A stretch of 64,000 nucleotides of DNA from Octopus vulgaris (lineage: Eukaryota). This document shows, piece after piece, positions 3,660 to 38,475 of this stretch. Positions within the stretch are counted from its first letter, which is position 1. Every line of letters begins with the position of its first letter. The notes under the pieces are model-generated. The model was not told the origin of the DNA. It made no database searches and worked only from the letters and a program-made list of their open reading frames with translations. Location: positions 65,224,001 to 65,288,000 of the forward strand of contig OX597831.1 of assembly GCA_951406725.2 (NCBI GenBank), given 5' to 3'. A program made the translations under genes and the position numbers.

Positions 3660-4260
3660 ACTTCACACACCAGCAAAGTCATGGAACAGATAGTCAGAGG
3701 GAAACTAATCGCATTCCTTGAAGAAAATAACTTGCTGAGTGATACCCAGCATGGCTTTCGACCTGGTAGGAGCTGCCTGACCCAGCTCTTACAACATTAT
3801 GACTGGGTGTGGAGGCAGTTACTCAACAACTCAAATGTGGATGTAATATACCTTGATTTTGCAAAAGCTTTTGACAAAGTGGATTATGGTATGATATGCC
3901 ACAAACTGCATGACCTCGGCATAGCTGGAAAACTTGGAGAGTGGTTACATGACTTTCTGAAAGACAGAAGTCAGGCAGTAGTGGCTAATGGAGCCACCTC
4001 TATGAAAACACAAATAGTGTGCGGTGTTCCACAAGGCACTGTCTTGGGACCACTGCTTTTTATAGAGGCCCTCTCAGATATGCCCTCAAGAACCCGGATA
4101 GCCACTCTGGCAAGCTATGCAGATGATACAAAAGTCTTGCAGAAAACGGAGAACCCCAGAAATGTTGCATATCTGCAGCAGGAGTTGGACTCAATTTACA
4201 GATGGGCTGAGGATAATAATATGCACACACACACACACATGCTCTGAAAAATTCCAAGCT
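3660..4260 (+). mobile_element. CR1-clade LINE reverse transcriptase fragment
   Basis: QHGFRPGRSCLTQL, VIYLDFAKAFDKV, GVPQGTVLGPLLF, YADDTK motifs. Confidence 0.92.
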
Positions 4261-13100: not shown

Positions 13101-13744
13101 CTACAAAACACGAAAAAGAAAAATAATGAGATAAAAATATATAACAAGTCAGTAAAAAAAAGTATGTAAATTATAAACTCAACATATATAAAAGTTATAA
13201 GAAGAATATAAGCAACAGAATATAGCACAAATAATATAAAATAAAATTATAAATATAACTTGGACATTCTACAAGCAAAAATTTCATGGAATTACATAAT
13301 AAATTAACAAATGGCACGCAATCCTTACTAGAAATATGCTCAAATTGCAAACAGGGTGATGACATGGCATTGATGTTTAATACAAAACTCAAAGCTTCAC
13401 TCTAATGTTAGGCAAGAATAACAAATTGATAAATAACTGTACTTAAGAGATAAAGTTTTAAAGAATGATCAAATTCAATGGAGTTAATGGAGTTAACAGT
13501 TCAGAAATAACAAGTGTCTTATCTGAAAGGTCAACTTCTGACAAAGTACAAAAGTTTGAAAAAACATAAAACCTAGATTATAACTTTATAAAAATGAATG
13601 CTTAAATGGCAGAAAGTATGTTGATCAGATAATGGATAAATTTTAAGTAAAATAACAGGCCTTAATATATGCCCTTCAATTAAAAAAAAAGAATCTCAAG
13701 TTATTATTTGACATGTTTGTAATAACATCACACTGGGCTAAATG

Positions 13745-14110
13745 CTATTTCATTTGCAGTTACATTCTGAGTTCAAATTCTACCAAGGTCGACTTTACCT
13801 TTCATCCTTTTGGGGTCGGTTAAATAAGTATCAGTTATGCACTGGAGTCGATATAATCAACTTAATCCGTTTGTCTGTCCTTGTTTGTCCTCTCTGTGTT
13901 TAGCCCCTTGTGGGTAGTAAAGAGATAGGTATTTCATTTGCCGTTACATTCTGAGTTCAAATTCTACCAAGGTCAACTTTGCATTTCATCCTTTTGGGGT
14001 CGATTAAATAAGTACCAGTTACGCACTGGAGTCGATGTAATTGACCTAATCCCTTTGTCTGTCCTTGTTTGTCTCTTGTATATTTATGCCCATGTGGGGA
14101 ATAAAGAAAT
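13745..14110 (+). mobile_element. SINE family B, tandem partial dimer
   Basis: Two head-to-tail units of ttacattctgagttcaaattc...ggggtcg...taaataagtaccagtt...gtgggtagtaaagagatagg; related copies at 19367-19867(-) and about 59415-59630. Confidence 0.8.
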
Positions 14111-15331
14111 AAATAACATATCCAAGTTTTTAGTAAAATTCTGCACAGTGCATTTGTGTTAGAAAACTACCCACCAATTTGAATATACCTTTGTTTTAGT
14201 CATCATGGAATGAATGCAAATTGTACATATGAATAAAGAGATAATTTGATGTTCGCCAGAAGTCAAAAATAGCACAAGTGTAAAATGTTTTTAGTATTAT
14301 TATATCTTCCTCTCTAATTTAAATATACCGAATTTATAACATTGTTATAGTCTTGTGGTACCATAGAAAAAAGCTAGAGAAACCTTTATATTATTGGTTT
14401 TATGGCTCTACAAGCTGAGTTCAAATGCAGTCAAGGCTGATATTAAGTCTCATCTCTGTAAATACCAATAATATATTGGTATTGATTTAATTGATTATAA
14501 CTTGCCCTAACAATCTGTAACACTGTGCCAATGCGAGAAACAATTACTATGGTCTTTTATCAAAATTTTTTTCATCATTTCACAAGTTAGATGACACATT
14601 TATCTTTATGATTTAGCAAGAAATGGTGTGTACAACAATCACTGTGTTCTTAGACATATAAATTAGGGACAAGATTTCAGTATATTCATCCCTACATTTT
14701 GGTTGACAGATTAACGAAGCTAACTTTTCGATTAATGATGCCCACCTCAGCTTATATATATATATATATATGTAGTTGAAATTTACAAAAAGACAAAACA
14801 AAAGACAAAAACAGGTGGGTTAACAACAAACAGATGTATCAGTTTAATCCTCAGGAAGTGAGAAACTCTTATGTTTCAAGCTTATGCTCTTCAACAGGAA
14901 AGAACACAGAAATAAACAGAGGAAATAAAATATACATACATATATATGTATATGTATGTGTGTGTGTGTGTGTGTGTGCATATATATCATCATCATCATC
15001 ATTTAACGTCCGTTTTCCATGCTAGCATGGGTTGGACAGTTTTGACTGAGGGCTGCACCAGGCTCCAGTCTTGATCTGGCAGAGTTTCTACAGCTTGATG
15101 CCCTTACCCTAATGCTAACCACTCCGAGAGTGTAGTGGGTGCTTTTTACGTGCCACCTGCACGGGGGGCAGTCAGGCAGTACTGACAATGACCTCGCTCG
15201 AATGTTTTTACAGGTGCCAGTGAAGCAACGTTGGTAACGATATATATATAAATACATACATATATATACATGATAGTTGCCAACTCAATTTTAAGTAGAG
15301 CCATTGCATGATTTTTTAATGCCCTAGAATA

Positions 15332-15812
15332 TCATTGATGAACTGCACAAATATGGCTTTTGAGGCCTACCAAAGACTTGCATGGTTTTTGATAATTAGT
15401 GCAAGAAAACTTGGTGATTATACAGTTTACAGCTCCATGAACTTTACTATGCCTTTTCAAACCACTTTTTAATCTGCATACTTTATGAGAGAGCATGCAT
15501 TCGAAATTATCTGTCCATCTATAATCATTGCACAGTTGTGCAATGTGTGATTTCATATGGCGCTTTAGTGCAGCCTAACTAAGACAAATCTTTCCACATT
15601 CATCACGTTCATTAATGCTTGTTAGAACATCATTCCTGTCACTTTTTCTCATCTTTCTTTTGATCTTTGCCTGATCCATTCTCTTCCTTTTAAATTCATT
15701 TTTGCCTTCATACACAACTTTTTTTCCCATTTTTCTTGGCAATGCGCTAAATCTTCCCAGTTGTCAATTGGAACATTTATCTTATTCAATCCTGACTTCT
15801 GACAATCTTTGT
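15332..15812 (-). mobile_element. Degraded RTE-LINE ORF C-terminus with three C2H2 zinc fingers
   Basis: YKDCQKSGLNKINVPIDNWEDLA (RTE C-terminal motif), then xDECGKICLS*AALKRHMKSH, CMLSHKVCRLKSGLKRHSKVH and CTNYQKPCKSLVGLKSHICAVH, with stops and frameshifts. Confidence 0.7.
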
Positions 15813-15919
15813 ATACACATACATACATATGTACACATACATATATATATATACATACTTCCAAAGCTTTCTCAGAACTGGGAAGACATAATATGCACTA
15901 TGAATAAGGGAGGTATAAT

Positions 15920-17370
15920 TCCTAGGAATTATAGACCTGTCTCTCTAACTTCTTATGTGAGCAAAGTCATGGAGTGCATTGTCAAGAAGAAACTCCTTGT
16001 TTTCCTTGAAGATAATGACTTGCTTCCTGACACCCAGCATAGTTTTCGCTCAGGAAGAAGCTGCCTTACACAGCCTTTGCAGTGCCATGACCAAGAGTTG
16101 AAACAATTAATGAATCACTCAAACGTGGATGTGATATATTTTTACTTTGCAAAGGCCTTTGATATGGTTGATCATGGGCGGATATGTCACAAATTGCGGA
16201 GACTGAGCATAACTGGGAAATTTGGAGAGTGGTTCAAGGACTTCTTAAAAAACAGAAGCCAGGCTGTAGCAGCCAACGGAGCCTTCTCCATGGAGAAAGT
16301 AATAGAAAGTAGAGTGCCCCAGTAGAGAGGGACTGTTGCTGTTCATGGCAGCTCTATCGGACATGCCATTAGTTACACAGACAGCCACACTTACTAGCTA
16401 TGCCGATGACACAAAAGTAGTACAAGCAGTCAAGGAACCTGCTGAGGTTAATCTTCTTCAGAAAGACCTGGATGCCATATATAAATGGGCTGAGGACAAT
16501 ATGCAATTTAATGCAGGCAAATTCCCAGCCCTCTGCTACCAGCTAATTGGTGCTCAGAAGTCACAACAATGATACTCTGGACCAAAAGGAGCGGCAATTC
16601 TAGAATCACAAGCGGTGCATGATCTTGGGATTGATATGAGCAACGATGCTTCGTTTCACATGCATATCACCAAGATGGTAACAGTGTGCAGGCGAATGGC
16701 TAGATGGATTCTGAGAACCTTCAGAACAAGGGACCATGAAACTATGCTGATCCAATGGAGACATTTGTCCTCAGCCATCTGGACTACTGCTCTCAAATGT
16801 GGTCACCTTACAGTATAGGATTACTAGCAGAATTTGAGTGATGCTACACGAGGAAGATGGCATCAATGGAACAGCTGAGCTACTGGGGGAAACTGAGAGG
16901 GCCACGACTCTACTCCCCAGAGTGAAGACAGGAGAGATATGCAGTGCTATATGTGTGTAAGATACTGGAGGGCCTGGCACCAAACTTTGGAATTGAGAGT
17001 TATACCAGACCTTGAAAAGGACGTCACTGCACTGTTCCAAAAAGGCCCAGGTGTGTCATCTGAGGTGAGGACCATGTACTGTAATAGCCTGGGATTCAAG
17101 GGCCCACAGCTATTTAACTCCTTGCCAAAACACCTGGTGGATCTCCATGGAGTGGGAGTAGATGTTTTCAAGTAATAGCTTGACTTCTTGCTATCCAAGT
17201 TCCCAGATGAACCAATACCAAGGCAGGAAACTCAAAAGAAGTCAGCCATATTGAACACCCTCCTCCACCAAAAGCAATCGCTTAGAATCGGCCAATTAAA
17301 AGGTAATTACACCGGTGGTGCCCCAGCATGGTCACAGCCTCGGGGCTGAAACATATAAAAGAATAAAAGT
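15920..17370 (+). mobile_element. CR1-clade LINE, 5'-truncated, with intact 3' tail
   Basis: NYRPVSLTS, QHSFRSGRSCLTQ, FAKAFD, YADDTK, MQFNAGK, GPQLFNSLP motifs with frameshifts; 3' tail ggtggtgccccagcatggtcacagcctcggggctgaaac...aaaagaataaaag. Confidence 0.92.
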
Positions 17371-17858
17371 ATACATACATACATATACATACGTACATAC
17401 ATACATATACATACCTATATACATACATACATATATACATACATACATATATACATACATACATATATATACATACATATATACATACATATATACATAC
17501 ATACATATATACATACATATATACATACATACATATATACATATATATATATATACATATATATATATACATATATATATACATACATACATATATATAT
17601 ACATATATATATACATACATACATATATATATACATATATATATACATACATACATATATACATACATATATATATACATATATATATACATACATATAT
17701 ATATACATATATATATACATACATATATAAATACATACATATATATATACATACATATATATATACATACATACATATATAAATACATATATATACATAG
17801 ATATATACATACATATATACATACATATATACATACATATACATACATATGTACATAC

Positions 17859-17891
<33 letters not shown>

Positions 17892-17921
17892 CATTCATAT
17901 ATACATAAATATATATATATA
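17371..17921. repeat. Long (TACA)n/(TA)n microsatellite
   Basis: About 550 bp of compound repeat directly following the LINE tail. Confidence 0.97.
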
Positions 17922-18489
17922 TTGTTATGGCGAAGTCATTGACACCCCTAACAGATTGGAGAATGGACTAGCCAAACTCTTATAAAGAGTAGTAGTTGGA
18001 GAGAGCATTTTGGTAGCCTCACAAAGTACGTCATGTGAACACATTGATTAACCTTCCGCTGCATAATTTATCTATACCCACTTGTGGCAAGATATAAAAT
18101 ATATATACACATACATCCATATACATACATATATTAATATATTTATACATAATATGAAAAATATAAATATGTTTATAATAAAAGCACTAATGAGTAGTGC
18201 CACATGCTATCACTGTTTATTACAGGCTGACTATTTGATAAAATCTTACATAGATTTTATCTTTGATTACAAAGATAAATACAAAATACTTCAACCAAAT
18301 TATTTGCTGCAGAATTATTTTAGTCCTATTCACACATGGCTGAACGAATTGGATTTAGCTATTGTCAACCCAAGGTGCCATGCAGGATGGATTGATGGAC
18401 GGATAGATAGATAGATAGAGGCAAATTGAAAATTAAAAATAAAAACAAAACAACAAAAGTCAAAAGGACATACACATGGTATGTATTAG

Positions 18490-18599
18490 GTCCCCAAAGT
18501 CCATCCCCTCCTCACCGTGGTGGGGACGCTGGCAACGGGTAGTGTCACAGCTATGCCGTCGGGAACTTCGGTTCCTGGTAGGGCCACCCAAGGTGGATT
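18490..18599 (+). ncRNA. Candidate HDV-like self-cleaving ribozyme
   Basis: P1 GUCCCCA(18490-96)/UGGGGAC(18521-27); P2 AGUCCAUC(18498-505)/GGUGGAUU(18592-99); P3 with one mismatch around L3 UCCUCACC(18509-16); P4 base UGGC/GCCA enclosing a C(UUCG)G hairpin; J4/2 CCAA. Folded by eye only. Confidence 0.55.
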
Positions 18600-18893
18600 G
18601 GTCTGACACTGAGTGGTATTAGGGCCACAACCCGGCAGATGGGGCTCTGGTGAAAATCCTCGGAGTGTCTGTTTCTGCAACCGGCGGCTCCTTGGTCGTT
18701 CTGTCCCTGCGTCTGCGGACAATCTGCAGCAAACAGGATGTGTCCACATGTGGGATTGTTGGGGACCGCTTGTGAAATCCACATATTCCCACAAAACTTC
18801 TTCTGCCATGGTTCGAGATGCCTCGAGGGTGGAAGAAGAAGCCGACTCAACCCGCCCAGGGTGAATGTCGCCACAAGTACAAGTAAGTAAGAT
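18490..18893 (+). mobile_element. Non-autonomous RTE-derived retroelement (RTE 5'UTR-like head, AAGT-type tail)
   Basis: 10-bp TSD tatgtattag at 18480-18489 and 18894-18903; head contains gctatgccgt...agggccacccaag, resembling RTE/BovB 5'UTRs; tail acaagtacaagtaagtaag; GC-rich and without a credible ORF. Confidence 0.8.
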
Positions 18894-19366
18894 TATGTAT
18901 TAGTTTGATGCTCAGTATAAAATCGAAAAAAGAGTGGGTGTGTTGCACGCTCACATGAATCTTTTATGTCCTTCCGATGATGATTTGGAGTACTTAATTC
19001 TTGGATTTCCCAACACTGGATTGCACTACCCTTTGAATTCCTCAGAGTATTTTTGTAGTTTTGATGATATATATAATCACGTTCATTCATTGGAACAACA
19101 AGGACCACTCAGTATCTTTAACGATGACTGATGACTATCCTAGCGACTTTATTTAAAGTGAAGAAAAGCTGGCTAACATCAACTTCATTCTCTCTCATCT
19201 GTAACCATCTTTGAATCCAGTGGCAGGACCTTCACACTCTCTCTCTTTCTCCCCCCCCCCCCACCAAACACACACACCATTCTGGATACTTTTTTTCCTA
19301 AAGGTTATTTTTTAAAATTATTTACCTTGGCAAAGATGGTGCATTATAACATTATAATCATCATAC

Positions 19367-19867
19367 CTATTTTCTTTACTACCCACAAGGGGCTACACGC
19401 AGAGCGGACAAACAAAGACACACAAACGGATTAAGTCGATTATATCGACCCCAGTGCATAACTGGTACTTATTTAATCTACCTTGAAAGGATGTAAGGCA
19501 AAGTCGACCTTGGCGGAATTTGAACTCAGAACGTAGCGGCAGATGAAATACCTATTTCTTTACTATCCACAGTGTGCAGGCGAATGGCTAGATGGATTCT
19601 GAAAACCTTCAGAACAAGGGACCATGAAACTATGCTGATCCAATGGAGACATTGGAGACACAATGGAGACACAGAGGGGACAAACAAGGACAAACAGATT
19701 AAGTTGATTATATCGACCCCAGTGCGTAACTGGTACTTATTTAATCTACCCCGAAAGGATGAAAGACAAAGTCGACCTCGGCAGAATTTGAACTCAGAAC
19801 GTAGCAGCAGATGAAATACCGCTAAGTATTTCGCCCAGCGTGCAAACGTTTCTGCCAGCTCGCCGCC
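19367..19867 (-). mobile_element. SINE family B dimer carrying an 85-bp templated insertion
   Basis: Head ggcggcgagctggcagaaacg at 19867; two units; foreign segment at 19569-19653. Confidence 0.85.
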
Positions 19868-20413
19868 ACATTATAATCATAATACCATAGGTAAAATTGC
19901 ACAGCAGTATTTATTCCAGTTCTTTACTCTAAGTTAAAAATTTGCTGAGGGCAACTTTGCCTTTCAAAGTTAATAAATTAAAGTCAAGTACAGGAGAGCA
20001 AAATAATCCACTATACTATCCTCCAGATATATGGCCTCGTGCTCTTGTTAGAAACTATTTATCTTGGCAATGAAGAAATACGAAAACAAAAACTTACCAA
20101 CCCATTACTTTATCATAGAAGGTATTGTCTACAATAAGCATGTCAAGTGTAAATCACTCTGGTACAGAGCAGCTCTCCAGTCAGACATTGTAGATACCAA
20201 GAGTAAGTGAAACGAAATAAGCTCAAGTGGATATTCAAACCTACATTGCATACTTGGATTTCCAGAAAAAGAAGATTGCCACCACCACCATCACTGCATA
20301 GCCCTTAAAAATCATCATATCAAAACAGGATAATGATAAAGTAGCACAGATTTTTGTTAAGTACTAACATAGAACTTATATACAACTGAAGTTTGAGATC
20401 AGTTACTCTAGAT

Positions 20414-20670
20414 TAGCAGTTCTCAACCATTTTTTACCTACGGAGCCCTTTGATTCCTATATTACTCTGGGCGGTAGGGGCTCATAAGTCATTCAATTCT
20501 AATAAGTCCTATTATATTTTTATGATTAAATATTATAAGGAATTGTACAAAAAATGTTTAAATATTTTATGTATCATAGAAATATAACTAGTTTATTGCG
20601 CAATAAATATTAACAGCAAAATCTTATATGGATTTCAAAGAGCCATATGGGCTCCACTTGAGAACCACCA
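20414..20670. mobile_element. hAT (Charlie-like) MITE
   Basis: TIR tagcagttctcaa ... ttgagaaccacca; 8-bp TSD ctctagat / ctccagat, fitting the Charlie target NTCTAGAN. Confidence 0.8.
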
Positions 20671-21313
20671 CTCCAGATTATATAAAAAAGAAAGACTAAT
20701 AAAAATTGATGAAAAAGAAATGTTTTCCTTTTCATTTGTATAGCTATTAATTTTCTGTAGCTAACTATTATTTGATTGGTTTACGCCTATTTTAGCATGG
20801 TTCATTATTGCTTTTGTTGTTGATATTAGGTGAATGAGATGGGTATTTACAAACTTGTTGGAAGTAGATCAGCTAGAATATCTATAAGACAAAGTACCAA
20901 ATCAATATGATTCACCATCATTATCATCATCATCATTTAACGTCCGCTTTCCATGCTATCATGGGTTGGATGATTTTGACTGAGGGCTGGCAAACCAGAT
21001 GGCTGCACCAGGCTCCAATCTTGATCTGGCAGAGTTTCTACAGCTGGATGCCCTTCCTAACGCCAACCACTCCGAGAGTGTAATGGGTGCTTTTTACATG
21101 CCACTGGCACTGGGGCCCAGTCAGGAGGTACTGGCAACGACCTTGCTCGAATCTTTTTACATGTGCCACTGGCACAGGTGCCAGTGAAGTAAAGCTCTAC
21201 AGATGTTTCATTCACATTAGATAAGTTTTTGTTGTAAAGTGGGTTCCTCCTACCGGCGTGATGTGTGACTGCCATTGTATTGTAGTTGCTGTTATACGCT
21301 AGCAGCCAAAATA

Positions 21314-24300
21314 GTTACTAGTCATTGGATACCCCACAACTGCAGTCTGTTTGCCGTGTCGGGATTCCTTTCTTGGATCTGTATATCCTTATTAGAGATC
21401 CATGGTCTGTTTGCAGCCAAAAATATGTCATGACTGAACCTGTGGAATTTTTTCACACCAAATATAATAGCCAACACCCTTTTTTTTAATCTGGCTATGA
21501 CTCTTTTCCACCAGCAATAATGTCCTTGACATGTGAGCTATGAATTTTCTCCTGCCACCATCACCTTGTGTAAGAGCATGGCTCCTATCCCATACTTGCT
21601 AGCATCTGTAGCTAGTATTATCTCTAACTGTGGGTTGAAATGTGTAAGATACAAGTTAACACGTCTTTTAACTTATTAAATACTTTCTGGCATTTCTCTG
21701 TCCAAATCCATTTGGCATTTTTTTTTAAGTAATTCATTAAGTGGTGCCTTTACTATATATACATTTGGGATATGCACTTGGTAATAATTTACCAAGCCTA
21801 GGAATGCTTGTAGCATTGTCACGTTCATCGGGGGAGGCATATTTCATATTGCCATCACCCTTGATGGGTCCAGCCTGTGTCCACTTCATCAATTACTTGA
21901 CTTAAGTATTTTAGTCTTCCATCAAAGTTCGCATTTTACTTCTGTCAGTTTTACCCAGTATTCATTTATTCTCTCGAATACTTTACGTATTTGGCGTGTT
22001 GCACCCAAGAGTTGCTCTTTATCAAATGTCGTCGAGGTATGCAATGGCGAAATCGCAATCACTTAACATTGCATCCATTATTATGTTGGAATACAGCGGG
22101 TGCCACTTTTACTTCAAATGGCAGTCGCTTGAACTTGTACAATCCACGGTGTGTGTTGATTGTTAGTAGATGTGAGCAATCTTCCTCTAACTGAACTTGA
22201 AGGTAGACCTCTGAGAGGTCAAACTTCAAGAAAATTTTCTCTCCGTTTAGTTAAGCAAATACTTCTGGGTTTGGTAGTGGGTAATTGTGTGTGAGTAAAC
22301 AGTCATTTAATCCAGTTGAGAAGTCTGTGCACACTAAGCTTTTTTTTTTTTTTTTTTACGTTGACCGCCAGTGCTGCCCAGTCTGTATGGTCAATCTTTG
22401 CAATTATATTCAGGCTTTCCAACCTTTCTGGTTCTTTATTGACCTTGTCTACTGCTGCAAACGGCACATTCCTTTTGGGTTTGAAAATAGGTGTTGAACT
22501 TTCTTTGATAGCAATTCTTGCTTTTGCTTTCGTGCAACAGCCTAAACCTTCTGAAAAATCTTCTGGGAAAGTTTCTCTTATTTTATTGTCTCAACTCATT
22601 GACCTCGTTCAATCGTTTGACTGTTCTGTTTACGTTACTGCACAAAATGCTTATGGGTGTATCCCATATATTAAATTTCTCCATACAATTTGGTGCCAAA
22701 TAAATTCATGGATTTTTTCTACACATAAACATTCACATTTTTTGGTTCAACCTTTCTGTTCTGTTTGTTGAAGTCACAACTTTTTCTGCTGACAATCTAT
22801 TTATTCTTTCTTGGTTGTTCCATTTTCCTATCAGTCTAGTTTTGCTGTGTAATTTTTATATGTCCTGTAAACCCACAGCGAAAGCACTTTGTTTTTTAAA
22901 TGGACAACCTTTTTTCAGGTACATCCCACCACATACCACACATGGGTCTACATCCCAATATTATTTCTGTTTTTCCTGCTACACTTTGTCTTCTGACTTT
23001 TTTTGCACTTGTCTTATGTGAAAACACTCCCTCCATTGAATTCTTTTATGTCATGCCTTAATTTTATTATTATGTCACACTCTTCCGACAATTTCTGCAA
23101 TGTCAAATCCAGTTTTGCTAGAATCTTCATTTGGATTTCTGCATCCCTTTTATCTGTCAATCCTTGTGTAAAAATCAAACACTTGAAAGAATCTGGAGTA
23201 AGCAAATCCACCCTAAATCTCTTACATTCTTTGTTGACTCTGCCTGTGTAAGAAGTGAAATCTTCATCTTTGCTCTTTTCTATGTTTAAACATTTCCATC
23301 TAGTATTAAACGGTGAGTTCTTTTCACTTATCATTTTGCACAAAATATCAACCGTGTTCGTGAAATTTATGTTGGACACATTTTCTTTTGGCAATATGAT
23401 GTTACTATGCTTTTTATGCTCTGCTGTTGCTAGTTTTCTTAAAACTAGACACGTTTTTATTTAATCTTGTCAATCCTGATGTTCTTTACTCTCTCTCTCT
23501 TTACTCTTTTACTTGTTTCAGTCATTTGACTGCGGCCATGCTGGAGCACCGCCTTTAGTCGATCAGATCAACCCCAGGACTTATTCTTTGTAAGCCTAGT
23601 ACTTATTCTATCGGTCACTTTTACCGAACCGCTAAGTTACGGGGACATAAACACACCAGCATCGGTTGTTAAGCGATGTTGGTCGGACAAAGACAACACA
23701 CACACATATATATATATACAGATATACAACGGGCTTCTTTCAGTTTCCGTCTACCAAATCCACTTACAAGGCTTTGGTCAGCCCAAAGCTATAGTAGAAG
23801 ACACTTGTCCAAGGTGCCACGCAGTGGGACTGAACCCGGAACCATGTGGTTGGTAAGCAAGCTACTTACCACACAGCCACTCCTGCACCTATTAAACATT
23901 TGTTCAAATCTTCGAAAGTAAACCCCAAATGTTACTCCTTCTGCGGGGTCATATTTGAATTCACTTATGGAACTTACTACATGGTCAGTTGAAAATGTAT
24001 TTTCTGGTTAGGTTATCAACATCATAAGTTGTAACATTTGCTGCTGCAATCCTTGTTGTTCTCATTGTTCTTTGAGTTGTTGTTGTTGTTTTTGCAACTC
24101 AACTACCCCAGCTAACAAGTCTTCCATATTTTACAATTTTTATAAGTTTGCACAAAATTTTTGTTTCTTTTTGTTGAGTTAATTTTCCATGTGAATAGGT
24201 TTAAACACTCCGTGTGAATGGGTTTTTTTTTTTTACACTGCATAAATTTGTTTTTCCTTGTCACCACTTTTGTTACTAGTCATTGGATACCATTGTACTT

Positions 24301-24730
24301 TTAACTTCTAACTTACTATTGCTGATAGTGCCACAAGACACCAACGAGAACTGTCAACTCTTTGACTCACGACCCTAACTCGATGACAGGCTACTGGTTT
24401 ATTTATAATGACTGCCTCCTACCACTTTTTACCAGGAGGCGGGTATACAGTTTCACAAAGTAAAGTCTTTGTGAATGAGTTCTGTCATAATGGATACAAG
24501 TTTCCCCAGCAATTTACTTTCCTACTTCAATTAACAGATCTCCTCTCTTATTCTTTTCTAAATAGGAGAGTTCAAAAATTAAGCTTTCAATTTCAGTTTC
24601 TTGCTATTTCTATTTTTCTTATCACCCACATTGGTCTTCTCTCTCTCAGTATCTGATCTACAATGTTACCCACCATACTTCATCCATTGTATTCTATGGC
24701 TGAAATACAACTATCCATCATTACTTAACA
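21314..24730 (-). mobile_element. Degenerate Ty3/Gypsy LTR retrotransposon (gag, RT, RNase H; integrase missing)
   Basis: Minus-strand motifs FKCLIFTQGL (gag), a Cys/His knuckle, LTINTHRGLYKFKRLPF, AIAYLDDI (about 22025-22050), ATDAS and GVKKFH (RNase H). PBS-like tggtgacaagg at 24256-24266 next to the LTR end at 24271. A SINE is inserted at 23483-23889. The right boundary is uncertain. Confidence 0.85.
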
Positions 24731-27700
24731 CTATTCTTGGTCTCTTAGATTCCATAAACTAATGTACCAGAGCAGTGTAAAAGCTAGTCTTCACAAGCAT
24801 CTTTCAGCTTCCACATATTTTTTCTAAAAGGTGTTATTTTAATTTTCTTCCTTACATGTATTGTGTGTAGTATATATTGATTTCTTAATAATAATCTAAC
24901 AAAGAAACATTTGTCTTCATGAACAAGATTCACCGTCCAGCTTACACAAGTGAATTCATGGAAAAGAAGCAGATAATTCAAAATTTGTTGGATCATTGAT
25001 TAGCAATAAAATCATTTTCAAGTGAACAAGGAAGATTGTTTTATACACTTTGTGATGTGAATAACATGAATACAGGTCAGACTGAAACAAACATGTCAAG
25101 GATAAAAGAGAAATTTATTTCAAAATATTTCACTACCCACAAGGGACCTGCTATGTGGTCGCTCAACTTGCTACAAATAGCAGCCAACCATCTTAAACAC
25201 ACACACACACACAGAGTCAATATAGTGCAAAATACACAAGAAGATAGGATGATCATGGCTAAAATGCTTTTAATCATAGCTAGTTCTGCTTAAATAGAGC
25301 TGAAGCTGTCATGAACAACTGGTCCTGGTTAGCAATATCACAGGTGACGGTACAAAAATATCTTAGTTTCATGACTGACAAGTGGGAATAAAGATTTTAA
25401 AATACAAGAATGTTAATTTGACAAATTTGTCAAATTCAGAATATCACAAGAAAACAAACATGTCAAAATACATATTATACAAGTAAATAGTCGAGTTTGC
25501 TTTCCAGTATATCTTGTTTGAGTGAAGTTGAATTAAAGAAAGACATTACATTCATTTTCTTTACATGTTATAGATGTTCAAAACTTTAATTGTAGTCTTC
25601 ACTGTCCTAACTTTAATATTTAAATAGAATTAAGACATATTTCAGTTGTCATTTACCAAGAGATCATATGGTCTTTTCATGCATTTTTACAATATCTAAT
25701 TTTGTTATTCAAAATAAATTATCCCACATGAACTTATTCCCTTAAAATGAACTATTAGGTCTTCTCTTGTGGAGGCATGTCGCCTAGTGGTTAGGGTGTT
25801 GCACTCACAATTGCCAGATTGCGTGTTCAATTCCTAGACCAAGCAATGTTGTGTCCTTGAGCAGAACACTTTATTTCATGTTGCTATTGTGCTCTATGGG
25901 GACTGGTATGCAAAAGGATCAACCCCAACTTTTTTCTCTGCATGTCACATAAGGCAACTAAAAGAAGTTGGGGTAGGATTTGCACCCCAACCTTGTAAGA
26001 CCATCGCCAGCAACGACTACCCAAACAGACCCATGGATTAGAGGGTTGTCGCCTGAGTGGTGCAAGGGTGTCATCTGTCAAGAGTAGGGAATCACCAACA
26101 AATGACATGTAGTAATGCACTGTGATAGTGCATGTTTCCATACTGCAGCTGCCACTGCTGCTATTCTATTGCAAGTGCAACTATTAAGAATTGCAGTGCA
26201 TTTCCCCTAAATTCAAGAATTCTGCATCCCTCTTTTCTAAGATTAAAATGACAGCAATTTTTATTGTTGTCAATAAACAATTTCAATTCTAAGAGTTTTT
26301 TTCAAAAAGAATATTTCATAGACATCGCCAAGAGAAATGTTGAAAATACTAATATGTATTACAGATAATTTAAAATGTTAAGTCAATATCTAGACTGTAA
26401 CTAATTCGGTTGATCATCGCATAAAAATGATTAAATTCCAATATGTTCTAATATGTCTGTAGGGCCAACGTGAGCTTGAACAGTAGAGGAAATGCAAAAT
26501 TATCAAATTACTATCCTGCATTCTACACAATAAAAATAAAATTGCATCTCAAAATGTGCATTGTGCTACTCAAAACAAAGGCATGGAATATCTGGAGTGC
26601 TAGATCTGGAGAAAGTACCTTGACATTTGCCCTTTGTAGGTCAATGCAAGTTGAGTTGATATAAGACTGAGTACAAAATGTGCATTCATTTTGTTTATAT
26701 GCATCACCATCATCATCATCATTTAAAGTCTGTTTCCTATGCTGGTGTGGGTTGGATGGTTTGATCAGAGCTGGTAAGCCAGGGCCCACACTGGACACCA
26801 TTGTCTGTTCTGGAATGGTTTCTATGATTGGATGCTCTTCCTAGTATCAACCACTCCACAGAGTGTACTTGGTACTTTTAACATGGCACCAGTACAAGTG
26901 GTTTTTTATATCTGGCACCAGCACTGGTATCAATTCTGCTGTGGCAGACAGTAACTATTCAGTCAGATATTTACAAGTCCTACTGTAAATTTCAAGCTGA
27001 CTTGCAGAGAGCAAAAACAAAAAAAAAAAAAAGCCCCAAAAAAGAGAATTTAGGTTTTAAACTTCAATTATACATTATTAACACAATCTAAGTATAAAAT
27101 ATACTGCCCTCACATCATTGTCTAATATTACAAAGGATTTAACATGTTTCCCACATTAACAGTCAAACTGTGTTTCTAATTATAATACTTATTGCTTCTT
27201 ATTACATTACAGTCAATACACACACATTAACTGCGATCTCACTATCAAGAATAACCACCTTTTGCACTCTTTTTCTTTTCAAAAATGTAGCAGTGCTTCC
27301 TGTCATGGATTCTCATGATAACAAAAGCTTATACCAGTGTAACAAAAACTTAGACAGTATTTCCCAGACACTGATGCAACCAGAGAAGCTTAATTAACTG
27401 ATACGACATTCTGTGTCCCCTTATGAAAAAAGGAAACTATGTTAAGTGTGTGACCCCTGCAACAAAAGGCCTACTATCAGTTTATGGCTGCTGCAAGTAG
27501 TTTAAGCTTTGATTTGCATGAACTTGCTTGCTTGCATGCGTTCATGTATACATATAAAGACACAAAATTTACTACCCCTTCAAATTTTCTAGTGACAAAT
27601 ATCAGTGCAACATGAGTGCCATTCTTTAAACTTTTGAAAGTGTTAAACTTGCAACAAGCAAGAAAATAAGTCTAGAGACCAGAAAAATGCTGTAAAGGTC

Positions 27701-27768
27701 ATGTCAAAGCATCCTTCTATTTTGTATTGTGTAAATACAAAATATGTTAATACAAATGTATATGCACA

Positions 27769-27809
<41 letters not shown>

Positions 27810-28112
27810 CATCATCATCGTTTAACGTCCGTTTTCCATGCTAGTATGGGTTGGACGGTTCGACCAGGATCTGGGAAGCCAGAAGGCTGCACCAGGCTCC
27901 AGTCTGATCTGGCTGTGTTTCTACAGCTGGATGCCCTTCCTAATGCCAACCACTTCGTGAGTGTAGTGGGTGCTTTTTACGTGCCAGGCAAGGCTGGCAA
28001 CGGCCACGATTGGTTGGTGCTTTTTACGTGCCACCGGCACGGAAGTCAGTCAAGGCTGCGCTGGCATATATATATATATATACATATATATACACACACA
28101 CACATGCATTAA

Positions 28113-28345
28113 GGACTGTTACTATAAGTAAAGCTATATGCTGGAAGGGACGCTAAAGTCAAACTACTTTAGCAAATATACACACAGCGCTGATCATGAA
28201 ATCATTTCGATATGCAACTGAAGTTTTTTTTAAAGAATATTTTCTTTGTTCATTTCTTCAACTTCAGTGCATGTCTATATTTTGATAAAGTAGTTTGATT
28301 TTAGCGTCCCTTTCTAGCATATGGCTTTACTTATAGTAACAGCCC
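28113..28345. mobile_element. Palindromic MITE (PIF/Harbinger- or piggyBac-like target)
   Basis: About 70-bp TIRs ggactgttactataagtaaagc... / ...gctttacttatagtaacagccc, flanked by TTAA on both sides. Confidence 0.85.
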
Positions 28346-28422
28346 TTAATGTAATACTGTATTTTAAAAAATCATATAATTTTTTAACTTAATTGGCTTT
28401 ACATGCTGGCTACTTGATAATA

Positions 28423-28450
28423 TCTCTACATGTATAAATGACAAAATGTC

Positions 28451-28491
<41 letters not shown>

Positions 28492-28817
28492 CCTTTATAC
28501 AAATCCACAATTTTTCAGTTAGAGGGCTCGCACTTTCTATGGTCATTCAAAACCATCCAAGGGTGGTCGTGCACATCTTTACATTTCCCCAGTCACCCCG
28601 CAAAGCCATTAAAAAAATCAATAGAGGTGACTTTTTTGTGAATTTTCTATCCAAAACTTAATCAAAATGCCCGAAACTTGATACGACAATTGAATGTCAG
28701 CTTGCTGTATGTGATTGGTCGGAGTTTTGGACAGTACTCGCGTGTATGTGTGCACGCACACAGCTGTATTTGCATGCACTAGCACTATGACCCGGTGTTG
28801 CCGGGTCATAGCGCTAG
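28423..28817 (+). mobile_element. Non-autonomous Helitron copy 1
   Basis: A|TC 5' end (tctctacatgtataaa), subterminal GC-rich hairpin gacccgg-tgttg-ccgggtc, 3' CTAG|T, no TSD. Confidence 0.85.
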
Positions 28818-29244
28818 TCTTATATAGATTTTATCCTTATATTTAATTCACAGGCACACACTATTGTATGGCTATTCGAGATTTTGTCTTTCACCATGTG
28901 GTGTCCAAAAGTCACCCACCTCACCAAGCAGACTTTGATGAGGCATCAGTTTAGCCACTGATAGTCTGACCATGCAGATGTTGCAACACAGAACATCTTA
29001 CAAGATTACCCACAGCAAGCATGAGGCAGATCTGTTACCTGTATGTTTGCATGCCAGAAGCAAACTGCCTTTTCTAAAAATGCATAGACAACAGCTGTGT
29101 GGTTTAGAAGATTGTTTTGCAGCCCATGTAGCTTCAGAATTTAAAACTGTTGTGTAGTATCTTGGACAAATGTCTTCAAGCATAGCCTTGAAATGACTAA
29201 TGCTTTGTCAGTGAAATTTAGTAGAAAGAAACTTGTGTACAATA

Positions 29245-29638
29245 TCTCTATATCTATAAACGGCAGAATGTCAGTGTATCTCTGTGTCCTCTATACAAAT
29301 CCAGTTTTTCACGTAAAAGGCTCACATTTTCTATGGGCTTTCAAAACTGTCTGAGGGTGGTCATGAAGATCTTTTCATTTCCCCAGCCACCCCCAGAAAG
29401 CCATTAATAAAACCAATAAACCGACCCCTTATGCCCATAAGTTATGGGCATATGGGCACGGTCGAAGTCCAATGAACATTAATTAATTTCATAAAAAGCA
29501 CCAACTAGCTCAAAAACAACAAAACTGGCCTGGGCTGAAATGTGATAAGAAACTTTGCTCTTGATTTAATGAGAAATTTTTACTGCGACGCAACGAACAA
29601 CTAGCAGTAGACCCGGCAACGCTGGGTCATAGTGCCAG
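29245..29638 (+). mobile_element. Non-autonomous Helitron copy 2
   Basis: Same 5' end and first ~180 bp as copy 1; hairpin gacccggcaacgctgggtc; 3' CCAG|T. Confidence 0.8.
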
Positions 29639-30404
29639 TATTTCTTAATATATTTCACTGATGTATAGCAGTGAGATAACTGATGAACCACTTTTTCTGA
29701 ACAAAAATATCAAAAGGTATTTTTAAATACCCACAGTATTTAGTCTACTTGAGTCATACAAATACATTTGTCATTTTCCCAAGTTGCACAGATACTCCCA
29801 CATAATTTTCACTTGCACAGAAATACAGTAATACAATTAACAAGTGATTAAAAAAGCTAATTACAATATTGTTATTCACAAAATGCATGATATAAAAATA
29901 CTTTGAAAATTAGCAAATCTATTAAATAATATTATCATTTACAATCTGAGTATCTTGAAAATTGGTACAATTGACAAGTTATCAACTGTTCCTGTTTATA
30001 AACTATCAGTAGTACTTTAATAAATTAAAATGAACTTTGACTTGTCATATGTGTGTATGATGCAATTAACTGAACAAAAATAGACAAATTAATGATTTCA
30101 ATAGATTCAAACAAAATCAATTGAGATGTAATCTACAGTAAATATTACTCCTATAAAGGAGATTAAGCTGCATGAAGTGGATTCTTGAGTTATTTTCAGG
30201 AAATCTCTTACAATGAATTATAATAAAGAAACTACAGGTACAGGTGGGATTGGCTGTGAGTTTGAGAAGCTTGCTTCCCAATTATGCAGTTTTGGGCTCA
30301 GTCCGACTTAGGCAAGTGCTTTCTACAATAGCCCATGCTAACCAAAGTCTTGTGAATGGATCTGGTGAACAGAAATTGAAAGAAGATCATTGTCTGTATT
30401 TATT

Positions 30405-30459
<55 letters not shown>

Positions 30460-30690
30460 CTTTGTCTTGACATCACACAATGGTTGTAAAGAGCATCACC
30501 AACATACAATTAATGTTGTTCATTTTCAGTCTTCAGCGAAAAAACATGTTGAGCCATGACAAAATTTTTCTTTGTTCGTTAACAGGTAAAGGTTGGCAAA
30601 GGGAAGAGTATGGATGTGTGTGAATAAAGATATAGATAGATATACAAGTGCATCTTCTCCCTGACTATGGTCTCTTAGACAACTCACACA

Positions 30691-30739
<49 letters not shown>

Positions 30740-31273
30740 CATTAAAAGTCAGTTTGAATCTTGCTTTCTTGCTTGCAATGTTACCCAGTCAAACTGGTAC
30801 ATAATGGGAAAATACCCTGAAAATAACAATCCTGAAATTTAAATATTTTAAAGTGAAAATGACTTTGAAAATACGGTAAATATTTTATAAAAGATCCATT
30901 CATAACCTTGGTGTGAAATAGTTCTTCCCTATAGGATTCTTTCCAGTGCATTCAACGTATCTCACCTTGAAAGATTTGGCTGCTATTTCTAGCACGCCCT
31001 GCCCTAGAACCACCACAGGTGGTGGTAACAATAACACTACACATGTCTTTGTGATGTACAACAACAATTCCAGATTCAAGATAAGATTTTCATTTTTTAC
31101 AACCTTATTTCTATGTATCTGTCTATCCATCTAAGTGTTCTTATTTGTTTTAACTTGTATTTCTTCCATTTATTCTGACGTTCTATTTCTCTTTGCCTAC
31201 AACAACCATTTTCATTCCATAGGTTAAGCTGATTTAAAAAAGAATAGTTATTTAGGTATCCTATTCTTACAAA

Positions 31274-33165
31274 ATGTCTCGACAAGGAAGAAGGAAAACG
31301 TCTGGTTGGTCTATAGATAATCCAAAGAGAACGCAGCTAAGCAGGCAACATAATGAATCAGACGCTCAGAGAGCTGAGTGTCTGGCAGAACAGAGAGAAA
31401 GAGACAGAAGCAGGAGACAGCATGAATCAGATGCTCGGACAGCTGAAGGTATGGCAGAACAGAGGGAAAGAGACACAAGCAGAAGAGAGCATGATTCAGA
31501 CATTCACAGACCTGAATGTCTTTCCCGACAAACCATTATGAATATACCATGGACAGTTCAAACAACATGATCTATCTGCTGATGTTGGACAGATGAATAA
31601 GATCTGTGTCTATTGTCATGCAATGCCTTTTCATGGTGAAACTGCTAACTTTTGCTATATGAGTGGAAAAGTAAGGCTGGGGAATCTGCAGCCTTTAGCC
31701 AAGGAACTTCACAATTTATTTAGTACTGATCAACTGTGTTCACTCAGCATCTTCCACAAATATGGAAATTAACAATTCCAGTGCTTATGGGCTCAATTTA
31801 GGAATTTGCTGAGGATTACCTTCAAATCTAAAGAAGGGCTACCAGAAACATTTACCTATTGATCAGCAAGAGACATTATGATCAATGTGTTCTGTATTTT
31901 CAAGACAAACTTAATGACCTGGGTAAAAGACTTACTGACTTTTAACTTACCAATGCCAAATAATATTGTCCCTCATCAGGATACTGGCAATTTGGAATTA
32001 TTGCATGAGTTGCAATACAGCAGAGAAGAGCAGCAATGATTTGTAGAAAAGGGGGAGCATTTATTGAATAGAGAGCAACAAGACATGTACAACTTTGTAA
32101 CAATTTACAGAAGAACACAGAAAATCAATACAGATGCAATGATGTTCCAAGTGGAACAGGAAAGACATTCCTGATCAGCTTAATCCTTTCAAAAGTCAGG
32201 GGAAACAGCGATGTGGCTATTGCTCTGGCATTGCCACAACACTGATGCCTGGTGGAAGAATAGCACATTCTAGGTTCAAAATACCGATGGTAGTGAAAGA
32301 AAATGGTCTATGCACATTGATGAAAACTCAAATACAGCAAAGCTCTTCTGGCATACAAAGCTGATTGTTTGGGATGAGTGTCCGATGATTCGGAGGGAAA
32401 GCTTTGAAGCTAGTGACCTTACGCTATGTGACATTTGTGACAGCAATGAGCCAGTCGGTGGCATTTTGACAATTTGCTGTGGCAATTTCTGTCAGCTCCT
32501 ACCAGTAGTGAAAAGGGGAAATGGCGTGGATGTAGAAAATGCCTGCATTACAAACTCATACTTATGGTGAAGCTTCAAAAATTTCAGTTGAAGACAAACC
32601 TGCGATTGAGTGAGGGAGCAGAGGACTATTCACAGTTTCTATTGGATATTGGAGAAGATCCCCAAAAAAAAAATTAAAATGAAGTTATTTTGCCAAAAGA
32701 AATGGTTCTCCAAGCAACAGCTATGGAAGAATGTATTGACTTCATCTACCCCTCATTTGACAATCCGGGTGAAGCATTTGCGAAAAATTGAATCTTAGTA
32801 CCTGTCATTCAAATGATGAGAAGCATCAATTCCACCTGTATCAGATGCTTCCTCGAAATCATAAAAGAGTACCGATCCTATAATTCTGTGCATGATGGTG
32901 CCAATACCACTCATTTCCCAACTGAATTCATTGATTCGGTTGAACTATCAGGACTACCACCACCTAAGCTGCAACTGAGAAAAACATTGCCCATAATTCT
33001 AAAGAGAAGCCTGAATCCTCCAAGGCTTTGTAATGGGATGCATATGATCGTGGAAGAACTGCACACCAATCTCATAGTAGCAAGAATCAACACTGCTGCT
33101 TTCAGAAATGAAATTGTTATGATACCAAGAATAACAATCTATCCAAAGGTGAGGATATCCTTTTG
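31274..33165 (+). mobile_element. Degraded Helitron RepHel (N-terminal Cys motif plus PIF1 helicase), internally deleted
   Basis: VGQMNKICVYCHAMPFHGETANFCYMSGKVRL; Walker A GTGKTFLI; GGRIAHSRFKIP; LIVWDECPM; GNFCQLLPVV; SGLPPPKLQL...LNPPRLCNG...IPRI; many stops and frameshifts. Confidence 0.9.
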
Positions 33166-33430
33166 AAGCAAAGCCAATTCCCAGTTTTTGATATTCTCCC
33201 AAGGAGCCTGAGGAACCTACACAAAGTGGATGTAGGTGTTTTCAAATCAAAACTGGACCTCTTCCTGTTGAGGGTCCCAGTTAAACCTAGCTCACGGCAA
33301 GAGGTACAAATGAAGGTAACAACACCAAACTCCTTTATTCACCAAATGCCACATATTAGAGGAGGCTCTCAATAACAGTGTAGCAAAACGGCAGTGCCCC
33401 AGCACAACTGTTGAAACTACAGAAAAAAAT
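33166..33430 (+). mobile_element. CR1-clade LINE 3' fragment truncating the Helitron helicase
   Basis: FDILPRSLRNLHKVDVGVFKSKLDLFL, homologous to about 17100-17330; tail ggcagtgccccagca. Confidence 0.8.
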
Positions 33431-33435
33431 ATATG

Positions 33436-33471
<36 letters not shown>

Positions 33472-33477
33472 CGTAAG

Positions 33478-35013
33478 TACATAGGGGTCCACCAAGGTTC
33501 AGTCCTCAGCCTACTCCTATTTTTCATAGTCCTCCAGGCAATAAAAGAGGAATTCAGGTCAGGATGCCCCTATGCTGACGACCTTGCTCTAATTGCTGAG
33601 TTACTATCAGAACTAGCAGAGAAATTTCAGGTGTGGAAACAAGGATTAGAATCAAAGGGCCTTAGAATCAACCTAGCTAAAACCAAAGTCTTAATAAGTG
33701 TAGGAAGGCAGGTAAAATACAAATCCCTTCAGGTAGATGGCCCTGCTTGATCTGTAGAAAAGGCGTAGGTAGAAACTCTATAAGATGTACCCAGTGTAAG
33801 CTATGGACACATAAGAGGTGCAGCAATATCAAAGGAAGGCTAACTGAGAAGACAGTTTTTGTATGTGGCAGATGCTCAGGAGCAATAAACACTGAAAATA
33901 TGCAGAGAACAGCTTCTGGCACATTCCAGGGAGAAAAACTAGAAGTAGTTGATAGCTTCCGTTACCTAGGTGAACAAGTCAGTAGCAGGGGAGGGTGCTC
34001 TGAAAGTGTAGCTGCTAGAATAAGAATAGCCTGGGCAAAGTTCAGAAAGTTCTTACCTCTGCTGGTGACAAAGGGCCTCTTGCTCTGAGTAAAAGGTAGA
34101 CTGTATGATGCATGTGTACAAACAGCCATGTTACATGGCAGTGAAACATGGGCCGTGACTGCTGAGGACATGCGTAGCCTTGCAAGGAATGAAGCCAGTA
34201 TGATCCGACGGATTATACTCGACAGAGTGTAAGTACCTTGAGAGAAAAGTTGGACCTAAGAAGCATCAGATGTGGTGTGCAAGAGAGACGACTGCGGTTG
34301 AGGGAACCTGTGGAAGGGGTAGACCCAAGAAGACCTGGGATGAGGTGGTGAAGCATGACCTTTGAACATTAGGCTTCACCGAGGAAATGACTAGTGACCG
34401 AGACCTTTGGAGATATGCTGTGCTTGAGAAGACACGGCAAGCCAAGTGAGACCATAACCCATGGCCTATGCCAGGGATGTAACTAGCCCACTTATGCATA
34501 CCTTTCCTTCATTGGACACTAAACTCTGCTTGCAAAGACATGTTGAGGCAAGTGAAATCAAAATCAAATTCGTCGACTGGCATTCATACTAGTGGAGCGC
34601 TAAGAGCACCATCCGAGCGTGATCGTTGCCAGAGCAGCTGACTGGCTTCTGTGCCGGTGGCACATAAAAAGCACCATTCGAGCATGATCATTACCAGCGT
34701 CACCTTACTGGCACGTGAAAAAACATTCAAGCGAGGTCGTTGCCAGTGCCGCTGGATTGGCTCCTGTGCAAGTGGCATGTAAAAAACACCATTTGAGTGT
34801 GGTCGTTGCCAGTACCACCTGACTGGCCCTCGTGCTGGTAGCACGTAAAGGCACCCACTACACTCCCGGAGTGATTGGCATTAGGAAGGGCATCCAGCTG
34901 TAGAAACTCTGCCAGATCAGAAGGGAGCCTGCAGCAACCATCTGGTTCGCCAGTCCTCAAATTGTCCAACCCATGTTAGCATAAAAAGCAGATATTAAAC
35001 AATGATGATGATG
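33478..35013 (+). mobile_element. RTE-clade LINE, 5'-truncated, RT plus 3'UTR
   Basis: GVHQGSVLSLLLF, YADDLAL, GLRINLAKTK, Cys-rich insert, LEVVDSFRYLG, MLHGSETW, GRGRPKKTW; followed by the (GAT)n-tail repeat sequence. Confidence 0.9.
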
Positions 35014-35019
35014 ACATAA

Positions 35020-35057
<38 letters not shown>

Positions 35058-37342: not shown

Positions 37343-37960
<618 letters not shown>

Positions 37961-38475
37961 TAACTTAGTTTGATTTGAAAACCCCACTAGAATGGGAGAA
38001 AGCGCTAATATATGATCTAAGTTATATGATGTATAAAAACACGTAATATACAAATAAATATATGTAAATATAAAACCATCCGATTTTCTGAGCACCTCAT
38101 TTCTTCTAATTATATATACATATATATATATATATTGCGCGGAGATAATTGCAGTTTAAAGGCGAAGTGATGTCAGTTGCTGTTTTGTTTGATTTCGATT
38201 ATTATTATTTATAAAATTCTGATAAGATAATGATTAACCTTGGCTTTAACTACTACAAACTAGATTTGATTTTCACTCTTCCATGGCTATAAACCCTCGA
38301 TTTGTGTCCATACAGAGAAGCAGCAAAGAGAACAAGGCAGTAAGAGGACACCAGTAAATAGAACGATCACGGCTAAATAATGTCCACGTATCAGTTAATT
38401 ATCCAGATAAACAAAGAGTAATCTAGATACATAAATAAGAATAAAATATTGAGGTAGATAACATTGATAACTTAC

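Follow-up and report, generated by a model that had tools for sequence, protein, structure and literature searches.

HDV-like ribozymes that act from the head of a retrotransposon are already described in the literature, both in RTE, R2 and L1Tc/ingi elements and in relatives with an internal deletion (NARTc, R2 SIDEs). According to the account in PMC5786205, a ribozyme of this type is predicted for RTE LINEs, and the 5' end of the LINE is retained in bipartite elements. The trypanosome versions cleave before C1 and have a P1.1 of a single pair (PMC3185411, PMC4035085). For R2, cleavage at the 5' end goes with microhomology junctions (PMC3774820), and the schistosome RTE Perere-3 has a head of the twister type (PMC8501958). 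Our search of the literature found no HDV-like ribozyme in octopus or any other cephalopod; supplements, Repbase or Dfam may already list the family described here. Two octopus repeat papers (PMC13282606 and PMC9115989) mention RTE, and no ribozyme, in the main-text passages available.

Here the same head mechanism is predicted for octopus. The locus is a short insert in a 64,000-nt stretch of Octopus vulgaris DNA (contig OX597831.1), which we call the window. In our assessment the insert belongs to a family of internally deleted RTE-type derivatives whose ~112-nt head is probably an HDV-like ribozyme, one that would cut the RNA before the first base of the family.

A bipartite RTE-type element antisense to ACO1

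The insert is GC-rich, 404 bp long and set in AT-rich flanks (Table 1). Two exact copies of TATGTATTAG surround it, the perfect 10-bp TSD described in the original prediction; this 10-mer has two occurrences in the whole window, and the chance of such a match is ~1e-3 over ~400 placements. A minus-strand exon in the window is 95% identical to cytoplasmic aconitase of Octopus bimaculoides. Because the ACO1 coding exons lie on the minus strand and a first coding exon is predicted further upstream, the element sits antisense within an ACO1 intron, which agrees with the orientation first proposed. A small ACO1 exon at window 1079-957, also on the minus strand, matches the X2 isoform of O. bimaculoides at residues 144-184, a protein insert region. 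The window further holds decayed pieces of other RT-encoding elements (3744-4235 and 33484-34229) and, upstream of the element at ~17400-17950, a long (TA/CA)-type microsatellite that gave spurious Rfam microRNA matches. No empty site was seen among the public-run contigs, which proves nothing.

Table 1. Positions of the element, its predicted ribozyme parts and the ACO1 exons in the window
Feature	Position	Strand	Remark
5' TSD copy	18480..18489	+	last two bases AG where the family has its first two, GC
Whole element copy	18490..18893	+	95.6% identity to family consensus; first 2 nt missing
3' TSD copy	18894..18903	+	
5' part common to LINE 5' UTR	18498..18801	+	88% to L165:1801-2086
3' part: LINE ORF end, 3' UTR and CAAGTA/AGTA tail	18804..18891	+	96% to L165:5065-5153
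CAAGTA/AGTA tail of window copy	18874-18891	+	
Remnant of P1 5' strand	18490..18494	+	5/7 pairs remain; A·C at pair 1, G·G at pair 2
Predicted P2 5' strand	18498..18508	+	distal AGUCC 18498-18502 and proximal CC 18507-18508, internal loop between; exact register provisional
Predicted P3	18509..18521	+	UCC 18509-11 / GGU 18519-21, two C-G and U·U; register as in RF02682 alignment
L3	18512-18518	+	UCACCGU, 7 nt
P1 3' strand and predicted P1.1 strand	18523..18531	+	P1 3' strand 18523-18529, then UG 18530-31, predicted partner of CA in L3
P4 region including UUCG-capped hairpin	18532..18587	+	stem with two-sided changes in families C and E
Predicted J4/2 and P2 3' strand	18588..18599	+	CCAA (candidate catalytic C18588), then P2 3' strand 18592-18599; placed by family D, where CUAA matches RF02682 J4/2
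ACO1 coding exons	13104-13006, 11105-10935, 10393-10256	-	
ACO1 first coding exon, likely	38503	-	predicted from a weak match; GT donor in right phase
ACO1 (cytoplasmic aconitase/IRP1) likely first coding intron, holding the element antisense	13101..38475	-	upstream exon predicted from weak match and splice phase

A genome search with the element returned 1781 first-look candidates; the 40 that were scored comprise the window copy and 39 others at 91-94% identity. A 29-nt head sequence has 138 exact matches in the genome, against 0 for the control. The window insert is one copy of an abundant octopus family, here called family A. Its members end in CAAGTA/AGTA repeat tails, are flanked by TSDs of 7-22 bp and include 5'-truncated copies, and their median divergence from the family consensus is 3.2% in a sample of 109 best-hit matches that is biased by this choice.

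The element joins ~330 nt from the 5' end of a LINE to ~90 nt from its 3' end, which makes it a non-autonomous derivative of the RTE type, bipartite and internally deleted. At locus L165 of the same genome the element head (at 1801) and tail (at 5153) stand 3.35 kb apart, and the interior between them holds endonuclease (PF03372) and RT (PF00078) frames. In a subfamily of ~510 bp, 103 further bases encode the last stretch of the LINE ORF, and over 45 aa this ORF-end peptide shares 60% identity with the C-terminus of an EN+RT protein of 1035 aa. The 53-aa C-terminal peptide gave no match in a protein search; used in a genome search, the same peptide led to LINE copies. The closest full-length relatives among the matches are EN+RT proteins of 1000-1050 aa on contigs of 3.3-3.9 kb. 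From its length of ~3.3 kb, its single APE+RT ORF, the lack of ORF1 and its motifs, we take the partner LINE to belong to the RTE clade; no named RTE reference is among the matches, and the label RTE-type refers to this architecture and these motifs. The family-A LINE copies examined are broken, with no intact ORF of the partner among them and a longest open frame of 333 aa. The genome also contains younger LINE families, many of whose copies have open frames of 1040-1113 aa (G000:C1:21288625, C1:174387578, C3:74085306 and many more).

A SINE-like family that uses RTE machinery had been proposed from the window alone. The RTE-type partner has now been found, while the SINE label falls away: since the head is the 5' UTR of the LINE itself, the element is better described as an RTE-type LINE, bipartite and internally deleted, than as a SINE with a new head. 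A tRNA-derived SINE was rejected on the same ground and on the result of ARAGORN, which found 0 genes and hence no tRNA-like head. The description of the insert as non-coding is likewise right as to function, but in its 3' part it carries the last stretch of the LINE ORF.

The family boundary and the P1 helix

In the original prediction G18490 was the exact 5' end and the cut lay immediately before it. In the aligned copies two more bases, GC, precede this position, with G in 76/104 and C in 67/104 distinct sampled heads (best hits, window copy included). The next two positions upstream are T in 53/104 and 44/104, and beyond them the sequence is background. Loose contig ends before 18490 were found in 54-55 contigs in each of three public runs, and their consensus ends in GC. 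Both the 104 heads and the loose contig ends place the first base of the family, and with it the predicted cut, 2 nt upstream of G18490. Taken literally, the proposed check of 5' ends against G18490 fails; it is rescued once the site is moved by these 2 nt.

The hard 5' boundary is also seen in the individual insertions. Among 89 copies with both head and tail, the first G is kept in 61, and a TSD is detectable in 44 of the 61. In 33/44 of these intact copies the TSD directly adjoins the first G or overlaps it, and 1-7 extra bases intervene in 11/44. For 58 loci located with 3'-part queries, the start falls at nt 1-3 in 32, at nt 4-12 in 12 and further in for 14. Upstream of the boundary, conservation is at background, the T bias excepted. 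For the window copy itself an alternative start is equally possible, in which G18489 is the first base and the second base has been deleted.

T stands at -1 in 37/69 family-A copies (P ~1e-4), the two bases upstream of the first G being T-biased, and A or T stands at -1 in 30/33 copies whose TSD abuts the start. The bias suggests either target preference or annealing of added bases. A T or TT belonging to the element RNA was rejected because these bases lie mostly inside the TSD. At eight loci (L023, L038, L064, L085, L083, L108, L179 and L182) the head is duplicated in tandem, over a short or a long stretch, just upstream of the first base, a pattern that template jumping at the 5' end would be expected to leave.

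Sister families B, C, E and D were found via the endonuclease domain, which in family D is 32% identical. Families A-E have in common a core of P3, a 7-nt L3 (U-C-A-N-N-G-Y), GGU, a 7-nt P1 3' strand and U; the HDV position labels are those that we take to apply to this core. P1 forms 7, 6, 6, 5 and 6 Watson-Crick pairs in the five family consensuses, which gives 30/35, or 32/35 with G·U, and pair 3 is represented by all four pair types. P1 therefore covaries across the five families, as a check proposed with the original prediction had asked of the family. When the strands were permuted among families, 2/120 arrangements reached 30 pairs around a mean of 21; this figure is not a clean P value because we picked the registers from the consensuses by eye and because the five families are related. 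The family-A consensus is Watson-Crick paired at 7/7 positions and covaries with B and E, and its boundary falls at pair 1. Across the five families the boundary lies at or about the first P1 pair, clearly in A, B, D and E and in blurred form in C.

Pairing was also counted copy by copy, without selection for intactness. In families A, B and E the true register is 82-84% paired, against <=73% in slid registers. In families C and D, which have C/G runs, a slid P1 pairs as well or better (65% vs 77% in C, counted on the 15/23 copies with their own 5' part, and 61% vs 75% in D). The P1 of family D contains two mismatches.

The predicted ribozyme core beyond P1

On the family consensus, P1, P2, P3, P1.1 and P4 can all be drawn in the nested double-pseudoknot order of HDV, with an ambiguous register for P2. 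For P2, P3, P1.1 and P4 we aligned 47 copies selected from the five families (10, 10, 10, 10 and 7). These were drawn from the 79, 26, 10, 15 and 7 copies that passed a filter (intact 5' end and <12% mismatch) out of 104, 40, 23, 25 and 22. In the 47 copies 91% of cells are paired vs 25-46% in slid registers, and a two-sided change is found in 23 cells vs 7.6 in shuffles. Counted by pair, two-sided change affects only 3/20, which is not above shuffles (462/500 reach 3). The P4 stem covaries; P3 and P1.1 show no two-sided change among the octopus families and are invariant, not covarying.

Several positions of the predicted core are strongly kept. In family A the conserved U of L3 is present in 102/104 heads and the conserved G in 98/104, and both are kept in B-E; the conserved L3 U and G form a reverse wobble in HDV-like ribozymes (PMC3774820, section 12). 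P1.1 consists of C-G and A-U in families A-D and of A-U alone in E, and P3 of two C-G and a U·U in A-D and of a full ACC/GGU in E. The C-N-A-A motif is kept in most copies of all five families. In family A, besides this U·U, an additional base stands between P3 and P1, and P2 is interrupted. The UGGC/GCCA helix, first drawn as the closing helix of P4, does not fit that role: it is absent from families B, C and E, and in the minimum-energy fold of the A consensus it competes with P1.1, whose strand it would remove. The head is better conserved than the next 170 nt between A and B (87/81%), A and E (86/72%) and A and D (74/54%), and barely so between A and C (83/82%). The whole predicted core is kept in 35/104 sampled family-A heads, again a best-hit sample. 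A G·U cleavage-site pair between the base upstream and U18530 was considered and discarded, since G is rare at that position and L3 already supplies a partner for U18530.

Six family-C loci (L315, L323, L325, L326, L327 and L329, at ~1500 on the element strand) have one common junction to foreign sequence at the start of P3. The P1 and P2 5' strands are gone, four of the six carry ~150 nt of another repeat, and several have the LINE 3' end inverted upstream. These loci form a rearranged lineage, which spread although its ribozyme core was no longer intact.

We compared the heads with Rfam. For 151 nt taken from an intact family-A copy, the best of 4227 families is RF02682 (HDV ribozyme), at 15.6 bits (E 0.66); the alignment begins at the first G in the same register as ours and stops before the proposed J4/2. 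On a family-D copy the whole model is covered, P4 and J4/2 included, at 19.2 bits (E 0.081). Both scores fall far short of the gathering score, 44, and neither E-value is significant by itself. An Rfam scan of 17500-20000, the 2.5 kb that hold the window copy, gave no HDV or other ribozyme match, just microsatellite-driven microRNAs. A twister-type head was rejected, there being no Rfam twister match on intact copies. At the level of the family, the partner LINE, the P1 covariation and RF02682 together support the original idea of an HDV-like head on a short RTE-dependent element, while the details of its register do not hold.

A covariance model of the octopus heads matched 3/32 metagenome LINE loci (of 80), namely L386, L408 and L333, at rough E-values of 3e-5 to 4e-4, and gave no match in 10 loci of younger octopus LINE families. 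In L333, P1 has seven pairs, two of them G·U, P3 has three pairs, P1.1 has G-C where octopus has A-U, and CCAU stands in place of CCAA; the core of L408 does not fold cleanly. A match of the same model at window 27934-28001 (E 0.003) falls in another common repeat and was taken as chance. With a looser descriptor, 3/14 other upstream regions matched vs 0.3 expected. Two metagenome loci, L353 and L342, have canonical-looking HDV-like cores (7-pair P1, 3-pair P3) upstream of the ORF, and these cores precede distant EN+RT ORFs.

Alternative explanations and known systems

In the reading that we prefer, outside promoters would give a host read-through transcript containing the element, and the HDV-like head would cut this RNA just before the first base of the family. 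The LINE protein would then reverse-transcribe the element RNA in trans via the shared 3' end and tail, and the 5' end would be joined by short microhomology, as proposed for R2 (PMC3774820). The window copy is probably inactive because its first two P1 pairs are lost, and P1 mismatches go with weak or absent cleavage (PMC3774820, section 12; PMC4035085). As it also lies antisense to ACO1, it is probably a dead passenger and likely inert in its present place. Inactivity had been suspected before for another reason, a P3 mismatch and a weak P1.1, both of which follow from an L3 drawn three bases off. In the supported register P1.1 has its full C-G and A-U set, and the remaining U·U of P3 is found throughout families A-D and is no defect of this copy.

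The family-A head may instead be an HDV-derived fold that no longer cleaves and is kept as a stable 5' structure for exonuclease protection, recognition by the LINE protein or translation start, with a boundary that is inherited or set by an RT stop at the end of P1. We regard this as unlikely. Family A is off the canonical core in the U·U of P3, the extra base, the split P2 and the competing helix, and its RF02682 score of 15.6 bits stands against a gathering score of 44, as might be expected of a fold that has lost cleavage; yet all five families retain C-N-A-A together with the U and G of L3, and the covariation of P1 extends as far as the boundary. Precedents come from SIDER heads that are well folded without cleavage (PMC4035085) and from the cap-like protection ascribed to the R2 ribozyme fold (PMC13708176), but a protective or recognised structure leaves the upstream host RNA in place, and something must still remove it, because the copies have no sequence in common upstream.

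An internal RNA polymerase II promoter, with a CGTG downstream element ~30 nt in, could also set the 5' end and make the fold incidental or secondary, an explanation that we consider improbable. CGTG is found at +29, +28, +31 and +31 in families A, C, D and E; at +25 to +28 it is a promoter element in L1Tc (PMC4748587), where a single 77-nt stretch serves as promoter and as ribozyme (PMC3185411). Family B, however, keeps the pairing without CGTG and has >1000 first-look candidates, and a promoter leaves the P1 covariation unexplained. The G that is expected just upstream of the start of capped RNAs is not enriched either (7/69 vs 18.5% background). A dual role as promoter and ribozyme, as in L1Tc, is compatible with the self-cleaving head that we favour.

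Hardly credible is the register of the original prediction, with the cut 5' of G18490, P1 GUCCCCA/UGGGGAC and L3 UCCUCACC: these pairings, like the UUCG hairpin and the CCAA motif, are all in the sequence and can be drawn on the window copy, but the family starts 2 nt earlier, no G stands at the conserved L3 place, three bases separate P1 from P1.1, the 8-bp P2 leans on T18594, private to this copy where the consensus has C, and the RF02682 alignment, with L3 as in Table 1, conflicts with it.

If cleavage is shown, HDV-like ribozymes will have cephalopods among their hosts, and the five related heads, in which P1 covaries, offer a natural series for the tolerance of the core (U·U in P3, split P2, C1 starts). 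Since about one third of the sampled family-A heads keep the predicted core, the genome may hold many cleavage-competent intronic copies. The heads also bear on why RTE LINEs often spawn bipartite elements and on the design of RTE 5' UTRs for gene-writing tools. A wider proposal appears doubtful to us, namely that octopus and distant animal RTEs carry a distinct RTE-borne HDV-like variant (A-U/C-G P1.1, U·U-topped P3, split P2, long P4), active in hundreds of dispersed octopus copies, with sense intronic copies that cut pre-mRNAs co-transcriptionally and shape octopus transcripts.

The RTE-clade LINE ribozymes (Ruminski et al. 2011, via PMC5786205 and PMC6765202) are like the octopus heads in their single-ORF EN+RT partner of the RTE type and in a ribozyme predicted at the exact 5' end, with release from a co-transcript. 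The hosts here are octopus families, and the likeness is drawn from the descriptions in the citing papers. L1TcRz/Pr77 (L1Tc, NARTc, ingi, RIME and SIDER; PMC3185411, PMC4035085, PMC3383444, PMC4748587) is, as in octopus, kept on internally deleted derivatives. It allows C as the first base (as in 4/5 octopus families) and has a P1.1 of 1-2 pairs and a CGTG near +25 to +30. It belongs to another LINE clade and host, measures 77 nt in contrast to ~112 nt with a longer P4 in octopus, and has shown activity where that of the octopus head is predicted.

R2 SIDEs and R2 ribozymes (PMC6765202, PMC3774820) resemble the octopus elements in the HDV-like head on a short, internally deleted element and in the microhomology at 5' junctions, which for octopus is proposed. 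R2 inserts site-specifically into 28S rDNA and uses a restriction-like endonuclease, whereas the octopus elements are dispersed, use an APE endonuclease and have TSDs of 7-22 bp. The bipartite RTEs RTESINE1/2, WALLSI3, MAR4_MD, RTE-N2_Lch and Bov-A (PMC5786205) combine a 5' UTR with a 3' RTE end and lack a small-RNA head, as the octopus elements do; the comparison is one of descriptions, and the passages on these elements in that paper describe no ribozyme fold. RF02682 (HDV-F-prausnitzii) is bacterial, and the L3/J1-4 pair is U-A in its model consensus and A-U in octopus. It nevertheless has the same order and register of P1, P3, the 7-nt L3 and the bases after P1 as the octopus heads, and in family D the likeness extends to P4 and J4/2.
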